Positions 45,331-50,117 of a DNA stretch of 64,000 bases are shown here, piece after piece. Source of the stretch: a plasmid. Location of the stretch: the NCBI RefSeq assembly GCF_056746865.1, contig NZ_JBWKMP010000003.1. One strand, 5' to 3'. The position numbers and the translations under genes were made by a program. How positions within the stretch are numbered: the stretch's first letter is position 1; the number at the start of each line of letters is the position of its first letter. The notes beneath the pieces are model-generated. The model saw only the letters and a program-made list of their open reading frames with translations. It ran no database searches and was not told where the DNA came from.

Positions 45331-45410
45331 TGTTCTAATGTTTTATGTTAGAAAATTAAGATTAAACCATACTAACACAAGATTGTTAACGAAAATTATT
45401 TTTCTAATGC
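45331..45410. promoter_or_regulatory. cluster of four operator-like sites in a divergent control region
   Basis: TGTTCTAATG (45331-45340), ATGTTAGAAAAT (45345-45356), TACTAACACA (45369-45378), TTTTTCTAAT (45399-45408). Confidence 0.5.
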
Positions 45411-45488
45411 TATTGACTAAATAACAAAGTGAGTATTGTCACCTCGTCAAAAGAATCTTCACGCCGCGCCCGAATTTAGGGTTTAACC

Positions 45489-47186
45489 GTGAACAAGAAC
45501 ATTGAGCCAGCTCGTAAGCGCGAGCGCGAGATTATGAATCGGGCGGCAAGCGTCATGGCTATGACCGTCGATCCAACCACTGATGCTGCCGGTAACATGA
45601 TTACCGACAACGAAGTGATGATGGCTAACCTGGAAAAAGCTATCCAGAAAGAGCCAATGTTTGAAGGCGTTGGACCAGAAGCAGCTCGCCAGATCATTGG
45701 TAGCTGGGCCATGTCTATTCATGAATACAAACGCCAGCATGGGCATTATCCGGCAAGCGATGTATTAGCCAACGCCCATGTAGCACTTGAGCGCCTGATG
45801 ATGGAGTCCGCTAAAGAGACGCATGAAGGCGCTGGCAAAGCCATGTTTGAATCAGTAGCCAAGGACATGCGCACCTCCGATGGTGTAATGAAGGTTGCAC
45901 AATATGCCGCACTGATCCTGCCTGCTTCTCTCGGCGCAGCCACCAGCGACGCATGTACGTTTATCCCTTGTGATCGTGATGAAACCAATATTTACGAGCT
46001 GACCAACGTTGCTGGTACAAAATTCGGTACATTCGAGCAGGGCGATGAACTGAACATGCAGTCTGCTGGCGTGTATTCGCAGATGAAACGCCTGTACATC
46101 CTGACCGAAAAAGGCGATGGCAGCAAAACCACCTTCCAGTTTGATATCCAGAACTTCGAAGGCCAGGCCTGCCCGCTGCGCCAGGGCTACAACAAACTGC
46201 TGATTAACCGCAAACCGTCCAAAGTAGATGATGGTGACGGCAACCTGTATTTCAACGACAAAGACGTCAACGGCAACTCTTTCTCTGCTACAGCAAAAGT
46301 TAAATACGATACCGGCGTTATCGATATCACCTTTAATGAAGCACCAGCAGAAGGCACAGAAATCGCTGTTCAGGTTGAAATCAACATTGAACGCAATCCG
46401 AGCCTGATACCAGTCATTAACCAGTCCATGCGCAATTACGCCCTGCGCCCGTCGCAGTACGTGATCGCATCCGAACATACGGTTATGACAGCATCTGACC
46501 TGAGCCGTGAACACGGACTCGAACTGGCAGCATTGCAATTCTCCGCAATGCGCAACTGGATTTCCCACGAAATCGATATGATGCGCCTGCGCACTCTGGT
46601 ATTCCACACAGTTTACGGTCGTGAATTTGATGTGGCACTGCCAGAAGCGCAGAACTACGAATCGTGGGTTGGTTTAATTCGCCATGTAGTGAACGCGCTG
46701 TCACAGGACATGGCTGACCGCACCCTGACTACCGGTATCCGTGGTGGCTTTGCTGGTGGCGATGCTGCTAACTTCCTGCGTTCCTTACCGCCGCAGCACT
46801 TCCAGTTGGCACCGGGCTATGTACAGTCGCCGTACATTCAATACATCGGCACCCTGTTTGGTTCCATTCGTATCTACGAAGTGCCGAAGCCTATCTGCAA
46901 ACAATTCCAGGAACATGGCTACGACTTTGGCCTGGACGACATCTACTTCTATGGTCGTGGCGAAGGCATTGGTAAAGCTGGCCTGGTCGCTGGTGATGCT
47001 GTGCCTGCTATTCCGTATGTCCACGAAACAAATCCAGCCCTGGTAAACCGCACCACTCTTTGGGGTACAGCAATCAACGATGTGCATCCGCGCAACGGTG
47101 AGAACTATTTCACTCGCCTTCGCCTGACACGTTCGAAAGAAGGTGCGATTGACATGTTGAGCGGGCAAATCAACGAAAAAAAGTAG
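45489..47186 (+). CDS. putative major capsid protein (P1 gp23-sized, with N-terminal delta-like region)
   Basis: 565 aa, GTG start. First gene of the capsid-sheath-tube block. Its size and helical N-terminal ~120 aa are consistent with a processed major head protein. This is a positional and compositional call. Confidence 0.5.
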   Translation: MNKNIEPARKREREIMNRAASVMAMTVDPTTDAAGNMITDNEVMMANLEKAIQKEPMFEGVGPEAARQIIGSWAMSIHEYKRQHGHYPASDVLANAHVALERLMMESAKETHEGAGKAMFESVAKDMRTSDGVMKVAQYAALILPASLGAATSDACTFIPCDRDETNIYELTNVAGTKFGTFEQGDELNMQSAGVYSQMKRLYILTEKGDGSKTTFQFDIQNFEGQACPLRQGYNKLLINRKPSKVDDGDGNLYFNDKDVNGNSFSATAKVKYDTGVIDITFNEAPAEGTEIAVQVEINIERNPSLIPVINQSMRNYALRPSQYVIASEHTVMTASDLSREHGLELAALQFSAMRNWISHEIDMMRLRTLVFHTVYGREFDVALPEAQNYESWVGLIRHVVNALSQDMADRTLTTGIRGGFAGGDAANFLRSLPPQHFQLAPGYVQSPYIQYIGTLFGSIRIYEVPKPICKQFQEHGYDFGLDDIYFYGRGEGIGKAGLVAGDAVPAIPYVHETNPALVNRTTLWGTAINDVHPRNGENYFTRLRLTRSKEGAIDMLSGQINEKK

Positions 47187-47315
47187 CAGTGGCGAACGTG
47201 TCAGTTTCACCAACGGCAATTGAAGTAAACGAAGGTGAAACTATCGCCGCAAGCACTTCAAAGACACGAAAAACACCCAAAAAGAAGTAAGACAAGCCCC
47301 TGAATAGGGGGCTAT

Positions 47316-47606
47316 ATGGAGGAAAAAATGGCTGATATTCAGGTAACTATTACCCCACCAAATGCGACAGATAAAACTTTCACTGTCGAATCCGATCATC
47401 CGGAAATTGTGAGTGTTGATGGAACCACATGCACCGCAGTATCTGCTGGTACTGCGGTACTAACCATCAAAACTACAGATGGAAATAAAACCGCAACATG
47501 CACTGTAACGGTTAATGAAGCCGCAGTAAGTGTCAACTCTGTCAGCGTTGATCCGTCAACCAAAGAAGTGACGGTAGGTGACAGCTTCACGGTCGGCGAA
47601 GCCTGA
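47316..47606 (+). CDS. Ig-like (Big_2) domain protein
   Basis: 96 aa (probable start at 47328, after GGAGG). ITPPNATDKTFTVESDHPEIVSVDGTTCTAVSAGTAVLTIKTTDGNKTATCTVTV is a Big_2 domain. The ORF ends after only the first strands of a second Big_2 repeat. Confidence 0.65.
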   Translation: MEEKMADIQVTITPPNATDKTFTVESDHPEIVSVDGTTCTAVSAGTAVLTIKTTDGNKTATCTVTVNEAAVSVNSVSVDPSTKEVTVGDSFTVGEA

Positions 47607-47609
47607 TAA

Positions 47610-47637
47610 AAGCCTCCCCATGCAAATGGGGAGGCTT
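47610..47637 (+). terminator. strong stem-loop after the Ig-like gene
   Basis: AAGCCTCCCCA (47610-47620) pairs with TGGGGAGGCTT (47627-47637). The downstream T-run is weak. Confidence 0.5.
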
Positions 47638-47671
47638 CTCTCATCCGCTCGATAAAGAGGAAAAGAGCAGC

Positions 47672-49327
47672 ATGAATAAAATTGGTTTTTCTGTTGGTCA
47701 GGCGGCGGGCGTTGCGGTAGCGGACGTAAATGCCGATGCTATTCTGTCCAACACATCTGGCGGTGCTTCCGTCTTTGCCGGGCTGGTGATTTCCCGCAGA
47801 GGAGCACCAGGCAAGGTTTTGCAGGTTACAGCAGCCAACTATCAGAGCGTGTTAGGTTCACCTCTTCACCCGCGCACCGGGGCCGCATTTGAACCATATC
47901 GCCACGTTGAACGCGCAGTAAAAGGCGGCACCGGTTATGTGGTTCGCGTATGCGCAAAAGACATGAAAGTACCGGGCATTGCCGTTTCTGTTCAGGCCAG
48001 GTCGAAAAGCACCAAGTCAGCAAAAACTCTGCAAATTGCTCCGACCGAAGCAACGGTAAATATCGGCGATACACTGACCGTTCGTGCCGTTTCTGGAGCC
48101 ACTTCTCCGGTAACTTTCGCTGCAAGCGAAACACCTGAAATTTCCGGCAGTGAACTGGCTATTTTCTACATAAAGGACGGTGATGCTTCGACAAACCGCA
48201 CGTTATCACTGACCCGTGAGGACGAAGAAAATGACCTGTTCACTCTGGAACTGAAAGAGACACAGACCGATGGTTCTGTAGAAACTTTGGAAAGCTACCA
48301 GGTTTCTTTCGATCCGGATGCAACGAACGATATGGGCCAGCCAGCATGGATTCCTGCGTTGTTAGAAAGTCAGTCCTCCAGGCTTGGAGCTGTACTGGCT
48401 GATGGTGCCGAAGACTCCGCTCACTTGCTGACTTTCGAAGATGTAGCGTTTGAAGGCGGTACAGATGGCGATCTGTCCTCAATTGACGCTGATGATTATC
48501 TGAAAGCGTTAGAGGTTCTCGAAGCGTCAGAAGTTAATTATACCGCACTGCTTTCTATGGGCTGCTACGACGCATCCGTGCTGGCAAAAATTAATTCGCT
48601 GGCAGAAGACGTTCGCGTGGATATGTTCTACGACCTGAAATGTGCTCAGACTGGTGATAACGCTATCGCGGAAGCTAAATCACATGGTTTCGGCAAATCC
48701 CACCAGGCTGCACGTTATCACTTCCCGTACTCATGCCGTGACACTTTCAGCGGTATGAATGTGGTTTACGGAATCAGTTGTGATGCGTTCGTGGCAAAAG
48801 CGAAAGGCGTTGCGCTTGTGTCTGATGTAGGCGGCTGGCATTACGCCCCGGCTGGTCTGTCTCGCGCAATCATTGATCGCCAGAACATCACCAGACTCTC
48901 CGGAATTGGCACAATCGATCGTGAAGCGTATGTGACCGCTCGTATTAACCCTGTAAGCGTTGCAGCGGATGGTTCTGTCTACATCGACGACTCCCTGACG
49001 ACATACAGCAAAAATAACTATCTGCGATTCCAGCACGTTTCATCACTGATGAATGCAATTGCCCGCAATTTCTATGAAGTTGCTCAGGCAATCAAGCATG
49101 AACCTGATGGCGTTACGCAGGAAAGTCTGACTAACGCACTGACAGATCTTCTGGACCGTTTTTATGCGGCTGGTGCGCTGGTTACACCACGCGATGAATC
49201 TCAAGGTTCTGACCCTTATGTGGTCAAGGTAACTCAAAAAGACATCGACTTGTGGGAAGTGGAATGGTCCGTGTGCCCAACAGGCACTGCCCGTCGAATC
49301 CTCGGCAAACCAATCCTGATGCGTTGA
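47672..49327 (+). CDS. tail sheath protein
   Basis: 551 aa. C-terminal region (ARINPVSVAADGSVYIDDSLTT...) fits the sheath-family pattern. Followed by tube-like genes. Contains a Big_2-like insertion (LQIAPTEATVNIGDTLTVRAV). Confidence 0.6.
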   Translation: MNKIGFSVGQAAGVAVADVNADAILSNTSGGASVFAGLVISRRGAPGKVLQVTAANYQSVLGSPLHPRTGAAFEPYRHVERAVKGGTGYVVRVCAKDMKVPGIAVSVQARSKSTKSAKTLQIAPTEATVNIGDTLTVRAVSGATSPVTFAASETPEISGSELAIFYIKDGDASTNRTLSLTREDEENDLFTLELKETQTDGSVETLESYQVSFDPDATNDMGQPAWIPALLESQSSRLGAVLADGAEDSAHLLTFEDVAFEGGTDGDLSSIDADDYLKALEVLEASEVNYTALLSMGCYDASVLAKINSLAEDVRVDMFYDLKCAQTGDNAIAEAKSHGFGKSHQAARYHFPYSCRDTFSGMNVVYGISCDAFVAKAKGVALVSDVGGWHYAPAGLSRAIIDRQNITRLSGIGTIDREAYVTARINPVSVAADGSVYIDDSLTTYSKNNYLRFQHVSSLMNAIARNFYEVAQAIKHEPDGVTQESLTNALTDLLDRFYAAGALVTPRDESQGSDPYVVKVTQKDIDLWEVEWSVCPTGTARRILGKPILMR

Positions 49328-49370
49328 TTTATCTTCCCCGCTGAAACGCGGGGATGAATGAGGTTTCCTA

Positions 49371-50117
49371 ATGAAAAACTATTCTGTTGTTGATCCATTC
49401 ATGCGCGCGCTATTTGCAGGCAAAACAGCCGATAACGCAGATACAGCCATACTGGAAAGCGCCAAAGATTCTGGTTGTTTTGAAAGTGGCGATAACGCCA
49501 TCCTGGAAAGTGCCAAGAATGGAACCGATGGCGCGGATATCGAAGCCGCAATGATGGAAGCGGTGGAATCCCGTGCACAAAGTGACATCCGCAGTCTGGC
49601 AGCTTCAATGCTGGCGAGCTGGGTAGAAGATGGCGACCCTGAAGCGGATTCATTTGATGCGCTGGCAATCACAATGGCTGGCCTGGCCGACATTGACGAA
49701 GACACAGAACTGACCGACGAACAGGTTGACGCATATAACGACGCACTCGCGGCGTTGGCTAACGCGGCTGTGGCCCTGGGCGCTGATCAGGACGACGTCA
49801 CCGAGATGATCGATGACGAAGATGACGCGGCAGCAGAACGCGTATTTGACGCACTGTCAGAAAGCGATAGCGAAATGATGGAAGAAGCCATTGCGATTTA
49901 CACCGTTGCTGGTGGCAATGCCGCAATGCTCGAAGCTGTCAGCAAAAAAGTCGTTCGTGATGGCAAGGTTACTATCATCCGCAAACGCCCGCGCCCGCGT
50001 CGCATGACGTCCTTACAAAAGCAGGCGCTGAAAAAAGCTCGCCTTAAGGCGCATACGTCGATAGCTAACACTCGCCGCCGCAAGTCTATCCGCATTCGCA
50101 AAAAACGCGGTCTGTAA
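49371..50117 (+). CDS. bipartite acidic/basic hypothetical virion-module protein
   Basis: 248 aa. The first ~190 aa are strongly acidic with A/D/E repeats. The last ~55 aa are strongly basic (RKRPRPRRM...RRRKSIRIRKKRGL). Confidence 0.5.
   Translation: MKNYSVVDPFMRALFAGKTADNADTAILESAKDSGCFESGDNAILESAKNGTDGADIEAAMMEAVESRAQSDIRSLAASMLASWVEDGDPEADSFDALAITMAGLADIDEDTELTDEQVDAYNDALAALANAAVALGADQDDVTEMIDDEDDAAAERVFDALSESDSEMMEEAIAIYTVAGGNAAMLEAVSKKVVRDGKVTIIRKRPRPRRMTSLQKQALKKARLKAHTSIANTRRRKSIRIRKKRGL

Follow-up and report, generated by a model that had tools for sequence, protein, structure and literature searches.

In phage T7, a −1 ribosomal frameshift shortly before the capsid gene ends, described by Condron and colleagues in 1991, reportedly gives rise to a minor capsid species extended at its C-terminus, and we know of no partner protein for the resulting 10B extension. 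Here we analyse the capsid-to-sheath junction of a D6-like (P1-related) Escherichia coli phage-plasmid, contained in a 64,000-nucleotide stretch of contig NZ_JBWKMP010000003.1 (hereafter the window), where the major capsid gene ends in the slippery heptamer A_AAA_AAG and is followed by an open −1 frame, by a small open reading frame (ORF) for an immunoglobulin-like (Ig) protein and by the tail sheath gene. We propose that a −1 frameshift adds to some capsid subunits the first strands of an Ig-like domain of the Big_2 family, and that these strands, together with a similar segment in the sheath protein, could serve as docking sites for the Ig protein, which lacks them. As with 10A/10B of T7 and T3, the slip would occur at the end of the major capsid gene and yield a substoichiometric, longer capsid protein whose added residues lie outside the shell fold; by contrast, the heptamer and the stimulator differ, and the T7 extension is not an Ig fragment.

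Programmed frameshifting is known to append Ig-like domains to structural proteins of phages (Fraser et al. 2006, as summarised in PMC9022992), and the same summary describes SPP1 gp17.1*, to which an FN3 domain is added by a +1 shift. There, too, Ig-like sequence is placed on a controlled fraction of a major virion protein and Big_2 is typical; the C-terminal Big_2 domain of lambda gpV is among the top structural matches of the core of the window's Ig ORF. However, what is appended in those systems is a whole self-folding domain, whereas here it is about 20 residues, equivalent to domain positions 1–22, and the remainder is encoded separately. With regard to the slip itself, A_AAA_AAG is the slippery heptamer of E. 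coli dnaX (PMC5389563, PMC9307594). The heptamers at the loci studied here are identical to those of dnaX and lambda G/GT, and in two classes of loci a stem-loop follows 4–5 nt downstream. Unlike in those systems, no conserved Shine–Dalgarno-like stimulator was seen when one was sought upstream by eye, and lineages whose stop lies two codons after the heptamer (class B) are without a shared structure.

Ig-like decoration proteins are known from other capsids, namely Hoc of T4, pb10 of T5 and gp17 of N4 (PMC7602432). These resemble the 92-residue Ig protein of the window in being small accessory Ig-like proteins whose genes lie among those for structural proteins and which presumably serve adhesion from the virion surface, but they combine a complete Ig domain with a dedicated capsid-binding domain that recognises the capsomer surface. 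The 92-residue protein has no capsid-binding domain, its Ig fold lacks strands A/A′, and its proposed anchor is a peptide of the capsid and sheath proteins. Cement and decoration proteins are absent from P1, whose sheath is built of 53 hexameric rings (PMC12810830). In the literature searched, we found no instance of virion decoration by strand-complemented Ig domains, nor any cryo-EM or proteomic study of virions of a D6-like phage.

The slippery heptamer and the −1 extension

The major capsid gene of the window (45489–47186, + strand, from the ORF list), which encodes a 565-residue homologue of P1 gp23 with the zero-frame end ...GQINEKK*, closes with the codons ...ATC AAC GAA AAA AAG TAG, AAG being the last sense codon. 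The heptamer A_AAA_AAG lies at 47177–47183 (+) in the capsid zero frame and adjoins the TAG stop, just where an earlier note on this DNA had placed it. Read from 47183, the −1 frame gives VAVANVSVSPTAIEVNEGETIAASTSKTRKTPKKK* with its stop at 47288–47290, that is, an extension of 35 codons plus stop (47183–47290, +) made up of a VAVAN linker, the segment VSVSPTAIEVNEGETIAAS and the tail TSKTRKTPKKK; translation thus bears out the 35-residue product ending at 47290 that the note had derived. The predicted Glu-C peptide across the −1 junction is KKVAVANVSVSPTAIE for the window phage and KKVMVANVSVSPTSLD for D6. The sequence AAAAAAG occurs 26 times in the window, against about 20 copies expected, and is present in 68 E. 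coli genes (PMC9307594); the heptamer alone carries no significance, and it is its position, conservation and context that do. At the junction of the two overlapping frames, A_AAA_AAG has the form X_XXY_YYZ in the zero frame.

The survey covered some 110 related loci, which came from phage, plasmid, GTDB, IMG/VR and Logan/JGI sources, leaving out one Salmonella locus (L010, Sa1423) with an error-ridden assembly. All loci with a large gap between the capsid and sheath genes had a distinctive capsid end, that is, either a heptamer or an in-frame fusion, and none of the approximately 60 short-gap loci (gap of 18–72 nt) had X_XXY_YYZ in frame within the final 90 nt of the capsid gene. A_AAA_AAG is kept throughout the 35 loci with the Ig module, save in the in-frame fusion class, and is found in at least seven divergent lineages; G_GGA_AAG occurs in one other lineage. 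In window-like and D6-like loci the heptamer stands directly 5′ of TAG, TGA or TAA, and in L103/L104 it adjoins a TAA stop. L009/L042, L105, L108, L109 and L110 have unrelated capsid tails, yet A_AAA_AAG again lies close to the end, two codons before the stop. The unrelated tails beside the heptamer read EKK*, EEKKSE*, EAKKSE*, DEKK* and GKKSQ*, and every A_AAA_AAG lineage has kept A followed by AAA-AAG and not the synonymous alternatives. P1 and Leclercia have neither the heptamer nor an open −1 frame; module-bearing relatives outside the fusion class keep both, a comparison that the earlier note had put forward as a check. In L040/L041 and L102 the Big_2 strand peptide is fused to the capsid protein in the zero frame, without a heptamer, and therefore the peptide belongs on the capsid protein.

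The span in which the two frames can join measures 31 nt in the window, 10 nt in D6 and 16–19 nt in L105 and L009, and in L103 it is exactly the 7-nt heptamer. Among eight distinct extensions of the window and D6 classes, codon positions 1, 2 and 3 of the −1 frame hold 10, 4 and 15 variable sites, and the ratio of non-synonymous to synonymous substitution rates (dN/dS, or omega) is 0.26–0.45 in the −1 frame versus 0.7–2.7 in the other frames. One further IMG/VR locus (L033, 2531839449_000024) shows a 1-nt length change in the A7 run of a D6-type extension (CAGAAAAAAACAAAG), which turns the basic tail into ...KKQSRSKAKTRP* and shifts the stop into the following hairpin; it could be a sequencing error or slippage-prone variation.

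Downstream of the heptamer, folding of the window sequence predicts a candidate stimulatory stem-loop at 47189–47250 (+), which begins 5 nt past the heptamer, has an energy of −24 to −26 kcal/mol (z = −3.3) and consists of an outer stem, 47189–47195/47244–47250 (GUGGCGA/UCGCCGC), and an inner stem, 47203–47211/47234–47242. In the same eight sequences, one of ten third codon positions is variable in the stem regions versus eight of ten in the loop, which suggests constraint on the RNA; the sequences offer no compensatory changes. The other heptamer is found in two Rosenbergiella relatives (L014 and L066, 4695–4920 in each), where G_GGA_AAG adjoins the capsid TGA stop, a perfect 11-bp hairpin lies 4 nt downstream and the Ig ORF is missing. 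We take G_GGA_AAG to be the frameshift heptamer of lambda G/GT. In these relatives the −1 frame stays open for about 72 codons, abundant in Ala, Gln, Asp and Lys, and survives the indels between the two loci. The site appears to be a capsid frameshift, either independent or ancestral, whose extension is not Ig-like.

Together, the conservation of the heptamer, the three stop codons that follow it, the second heptamer type, the coding signature of the −1 frame and the tiny overlap argue for the programmed −1 frameshift that the earlier note had suggested, and sequence comparison makes such a shift, by a minority of ribosomes at the capsid end, highly probable. In itself it would add a conserved capsid −1 frameshift of the T7 10A/10B kind to the P1/D6 phage-plasmid group, which occurs widely across E. 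coli, Salmonella and other Enterobacterales. Annotation has missed it: the equivalent D6 frame, orf50, is listed as 'hypothetical', and RefSeq omits the extension.

Big_2 segments in capsid, Ig protein and sheath

The segment VSVSPTAIEVNEGETIAAS of the capsid extension corresponds to the strand A/A′ segment of Big_2. The Ig protein encoded 3′ of it has 92 residues when read from ATG 47328 (47328–47606, +; MADIQV...). This start is likelier than ATG 47316 because GGAGG at 47319–47323, the ribosome-binding site (RBS), lies within the longer reading, and because D6 and RefSeq use the equivalent start; the ORF that the earlier note had drawn at 47316–47606 thus exists but is probably 12 nt shorter. 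It encodes strands B–G (residues ~3–62), a short linker and, at its C-terminus, a second A/A′ segment (residues 72–92, nt 47541–47603), the latter already recognised in the note as the opening of another Big_2 domain ahead of a stem-loop (now placed at 47610–47637). Against Pfam Big_2 (PF02368), the ORF scores 27.9 bits, above the gathering cut-off of 22.8, and covers profile positions 22–79 of 79 only. The note's 'one complete Big_2 domain' therefore does not stand: the 92-residue protein does not hold a complete Big_2 in one polypeptide, has no Pfam match besides Big_2 and consists of a shortened Big_2 plus the strand segment.

To compare the segments, we placed each donor segment before the Ig core and scored the product on Pfam Big_2, with scrambled prefixes as control. 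The core alone gave 28.4 bits over positions 23–79. Preceded by the capsid extension it gave 43.4 bits over positions 1–79, the extension itself accounting for positions 1–22, in agreement with the note's view of the extension as opening Big_2 strands; preceded by the ORF's own C-terminal tail it gave 39.4 bits over positions 2–79, and scrambled prefixes brought no gain (26–30 bits). A third donor is found in the tail sheath protein, a 551-residue P1 gp22 homologue (47672–49327, +; 42% identity), which has a loop insertion at residues 106–140 (47987–48091, +) of about 32 residues extra relative to P1 gp22. It reads SKSTKSAK followed by TLQIAPTEATVNIGDTLTVRAV, and TLQIAPTEATVNIGDTLTVRAV (48026–48091) matches a third Big_2 strand A/A′ segment: placed before the Ig core, the window insert raised the score from 28.4 to 41.5 bits (scrambled, 28.1). 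With cognate cores, the sheath insert raised the score from 34.9 to 50.4 bits in D6 and from 44.6 to 58.7 bits in L103, with weaker gains (2–6 bits) in L105 (25.0 to 30.7) and L040 (29.6 to 31.9). Concatenation in L009 and L040 had the same outcome as in the window, and the gain for each donor (extension, ORF tail or sheath insert) was 8–15 bits in most lineages. At the level of sequence profiles, these scores show a split Big_2 anatomy in which extension, tail and sheath insert each supply positions 1–22. Beyond what the earlier note held, the domain of the ORF lacks exactly the segment that the extension carries, and the sheath has a third copy. The three segments were also considered as DNA repeats or recombination substrate and rejected as such, since only 18 of 57 positions are common and there are no long direct repeats.

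The enlarged sheath loop and the Ig ORF occur together. Between fixed anchors, the loop has 58–86 residues in 35 of 35 loci with the Ig ORF and 40–49 residues in loci without it, and the enlarged loops hold the motif h-x-h-x-P-x4-V-x2-G-[DE]-x-h-x-h in full or half form. Exceptions without the Ig ORF are L018 and L020/L074, which carry unrelated inserts of 20–30 residues, and the loop appears from these sequences to be a general insertion hot spot. The inserts of L018 and L020/L074 (for example LKSKSVKSGAGDVEPLAAE) are basic, contain Gly and Asp and have no Big_2 strand motif. In an AlphaFold2 (AF2) model of the sheath protein (predicted local distance difference test, pLDDT, 82; predicted template modelling score, pTM, 0.80), residues ~108–141 have no secondary structure and a pLDDT of 40–62, with only about one-third of the rows in the multiple sequence alignment containing the insert, and confident strands (99–107 and 142–150) flank it. 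Because extra sheath domains point away from the tube (PMC9230969), the loop is, by analogy, probably external. Lys/Arg-rich stretches accompany the strand segments: the capsid extension has one C-terminal to its segment (47259–47287, TSKTRKTPKKK), and the sheath insert one on the N-terminal side (48002–48025, SKSTKSAK); they are also seen in the extensions of L105, L109, L110 and L107 and are absent from those of L009, L103 and L108.

Proteins of the Ig ORF family have 91–96 residues and are 41–98% identical. In all members the N-terminus is strand B (M-[PA]-x-I-x-V...PENAT[DN]K) and the C-terminus falls about 20 residues into the next repeat (...VSVDxxxxxVTVGDTFTVGE), a point that ordinary tandem Big_2 proteins read through. 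The window protein aligns contiguously (~2–89) inside giant tandem Big_2 arrays, and the ORF therefore equals one array period in a shifted register. An exhaustive search of representatives returned only such giant arrays and no further split systems. A wider family of Big_2 proteins without strand A was considered and dismissed, as matches of 68–84 residues elsewhere are start-call variants of complete single-domain proteins. In its AF2 model (pLDDT 83.5) the Ig protein has no strand in its N-terminal 17 residues, and its core superposes on Big_2 structures, including lambda gpV, with a root-mean-square deviation of 1.3 Å.

Extension, ORF tail and sheath motif are all under purifying selection (omega < 1), with synonymous sites saturated. 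Omega is 0.06–0.58 in the ORF tail, where dS is saturated and the end point is constant within about two codons, and 0.23–0.76 in the sheath insert versus 0.05–0.15 in the rest of the N-terminal part of the sheath protein; the split positions are identical across lineages that are only 41–52% identical in the Ig ORF. Because the end points are fixed across lineages, omega is below 1 and dS is saturated, the sequences argue that the Ig pieces are functional and not a relic. In L107, a 2.3-kb metagenomic contig, the extension is kept, the hairpin is followed directly by the sheath gene without an Ig ORF, and the strand motif has been deleted from the sheath precisely and in frame. In L103/L104, a 68-residue strand B–G unit without a tail and a 91-residue tailed unit lie 3′ of the extension; two donors and two acceptors would be compatible with a capped two-unit chain. 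Compared with 47300–47560 of the window, the plasmids L007 (NZ_CP069647.1), L006, L022 and L024 have a D6-like Ig core, 66–90% identical, and a window-like tail, and they are 100% identical to the window through the capsid end, extension and sheath. The pattern is that of a clean cassette exchange of the Ig core and suggests diversifying exchange of the displayed domain, which would bear on phage-surface or phage-host interactions.

Docking model and alternative explanations

The pieces can be put together as follows. A minority of ribosomes would slip −1 on A_AAA_AAG at the last two capsid codons and add 35 residues, probably aided by the stem-loop 5 nt downstream and the adjacent stop codon. 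At profile level the extension is not a domain: it comprises strands A/A′ and the first part of strand B, about 20 residues in all, followed by a basic tail, and the 92-residue protein is a Big_2 lacking exactly that segment, with a spare copy at its own C-terminus. Orphan segments on a frameshift-limited subset of capsid proteins and on all sheath subunits would then act as docking strands that complete the Ig protein in trans by β-strand complementation, giving non-covalent Ig display on head and tail. The tail of a docked Ig protein could recruit a further copy or be capped by a unit without a tail, of the kind that L103 encodes. As other phage surface domains of Ig-like type suggest, the displayed domains may confer weak adhesion to surfaces or glycans. 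The efficiency of the shift, an outward capsid C-terminus, physical complementation and adhesion are steps that we infer. On present sequence evidence, docking by strand complementation in trans stands at, or slightly below, an even chance, and the whole chain from frameshift to docking is evenly balanced; that it forms a natural split-domain 'tag/catcher', with head tags dosed by the −1 shift or, in the fusion lineages, constitutive, and with one small gene decorating both head and contractile tail, is a tentative reading a little short of even.

Strand-missing Ig-like folds that are completed by a strand of another polypeptide are familiar from chaperone–usher pili (Fim, Pap and Caf1) and from engineered split Ig-like domains (SpyTag/SpyCatcher). 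As in the pili, a subunit with both a groove and a donor strand can chain, and the tail-less unit of L103 resembles a chain end; at profile level, an acceptor deficient in an edge strand and a matching donor on a partner polypeptide are both found here. In contrast to the pili, the missing element is the N-terminal A/A′ and not the C-terminal G strand, and no isopeptide chemistry of the SpyTag/SpyCatcher kind is evident. We claim a mechanistic analogy and not membership of the pilus family: the absent strand is the N-terminal one, a dedicated chaperone or usher would not be expected in the cytoplasmic assembly of a phage, and complementation is deduced from sequence. Should docking hold, it would be a new mode of attaching a decoration protein, with a fold completed across polypeptides, in which frameshifting determines how many attachment points the head has and loop insertion supplies sites on the sheath; for display on transducing particles of the P1 type, it could also yield a compact natural pair of peptide tag and partner. 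D6 is cultivable, which makes the docking model directly testable.

Several points weigh against this model. The evidence for the trans-frame protein and for the complex comes from sequence, and the outward-facing capsid C-terminus is an assumption. The donors overlap the N-terminus of the acceptor by about 4–7 residues of strand B, and therefore there is no clean jigsaw fit. One acceptor type with two to three donor types would leave chain length uncontrolled. L107 is the single locus behind the correlated loss of Ig ORF and sheath insert, and the module-bearing lineages probably form one clade, so that co-occurrence may largely reflect a single ancestral gain. RNAalifold gave no shared downstream structure in the class-B lineages. 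Finally, the monomer model from AF2 gives the tail of the Ig protein a pLDDT of 85–89, and a tail placed so confidently could mean completion in cis by a circular permutant.

This last point leads to an alternative in which the frameshift is real and the 92-residue protein is a self-contained, circularly permuted Big_2 whose tail folds in cis, with the extension and sheath peptides, dispensable for folding, being independent surface peptides such as basic or adhesive tails, or competitors that displace the cis strand; besides the AF2 tail, the basic stretches in many extensions and sheath inserts favour it. AF2 monomer models, however, are known to fold swapped elements back in cis, and DSSP assigns the tail no strand in the model. 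The linker from strand G to the tail has only about nine residues, whereas the topology would put the N and C poles of the Ig domain at opposite ends; the 68-residue tail-less unit of L103 is unable to complete itself; the strand motif, beyond the basic part, is conserved in extension and sheath; and in L107 the Ig ORF and the sheath motif are both gone. We consider cis folding unlikely. The frameshift might also be real and the extension matter only as a variable capsid tail, with extension, ORF tail and sheath insert owing their Ig likeness to shared ancestry by recombination with Ig-coding DNA, without any physical interaction between them. C-terminal tails in this family are indeed highly variable, the frameshift of L014/L066 leads to a non-Ig extension, L107 retains its extension without an Ig ORF, and Ig-like domains are notorious for moving between phage genes (Fraser 2006, as cited in PMC9022992). 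On the other side, all three segments end at one profile position and have been kept by purifying selection as synonymous divergence reached saturation, a β-sandwich fragment of 20 residues has no obvious stand-alone fold, and recent recombination is excluded because the DNA similarity of the segments is low, which makes this explanation improbable.

Two further explanations dispense with the programmed shift. The 33–35-codon frame could be a separate small gene (orf50 of D6), translated by termination–reinitiation at the capsid stop: D6 has a TGATG stop-start overlap and its annotators called a separate ORF, and in the window a GTG (47189) lies three bases past the stop. Yet the extensions of L009/L042 contain no ATG, GTG or TTG, and that of L105 has its sole start codon at codon 16, inside the strand segment, which excludes independent initiation in L009 and L105. 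There is no RBS, the heptamer is conserved and start codons are not, and with the class-B stop two codons past the heptamer the coupling geometry varies while the heptamer stays fixed; in L040/L041/L102, moreover, the peptide is covalently part of the capsid protein. Reinitiation is thus very improbable. Similarly slight is the chance that we see a decaying relic of a capsid–Ig–Ig fusion broken by insertions, with a heptamer that arose by chance from a Lys-Lys C-terminus. AAAAAAG is common, both by its count in the window and in E. coli genes (PMC9307594), and the pieces do resemble a cut-up tandem array, as the earlier note had proposed in speaking of a broken-up relic; but the split falls at the same place, with identical end points, in lineages 41–52% identical in the Ig ORF, all pieces have omega < 1 with dS up to saturation, dozens of loci show no frame-disrupting mutation, and every lineage keeps A plus AAA-AAG over synonymous alternatives.

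The surrounding locus

Positions 45400–49400 of the window are 76% identical in nucleotide sequence to Escherichia phage D6 over the full length, and the D6 annotation has an identical gene order: orf51 (major capsid), orf50, orf49 (Ig) and orf48 (tail sheath). Of these, orf50 has 34 codons and overlaps the capsid stop, and orf49 is described as a 'structural protein with Ig domain'. The capsid protein of the window shares 87.6% identity with its D6 counterpart and 45% with P1 gp23, and it matches the solved P1 Gp23 (PDB 9ukm, E = 3e-166); the sheath protein matches the solved P1 Gp22 (PDB 8jaj).

Two hairpins flank the Ig ORF. The first, a GC-rich hairpin of 7 bp (−13 kcal/mol), folds at 47295–47313 (+) between the extension stop and the RBS of the Ig ORF; the earlier note had seen it, at the slightly different position 47293–47309. 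A counterpart lies 3′ of the capsid gene in P1, Leclercia and nearly all module-bearing lineages; positions of post-capsid hairpins include ~4225–4250 in L003 and ~4760–4780 in L004. The second, of 12 bp, lies after the Ig ORF and before the RBS of the sheath gene (47610–47637, +), within a fold of 47600–47672 of −30.9 kcal/mol (z = −3.7). Both were considered as intrinsic terminators on the + strand and rejected, neither having a T-tract; they may attenuate transcription or stabilise the 3′ end of the capsid mRNA, thereby setting expression ratios. Two further copies of AAAAAAG lie in the structural gene that follows (ORF 49371–50117, P1 gp21-like), at 49944–49950 and 50031–50037; judged from the ORF start, both copies are off the X_XXY_YYZ register and are probably incidental.

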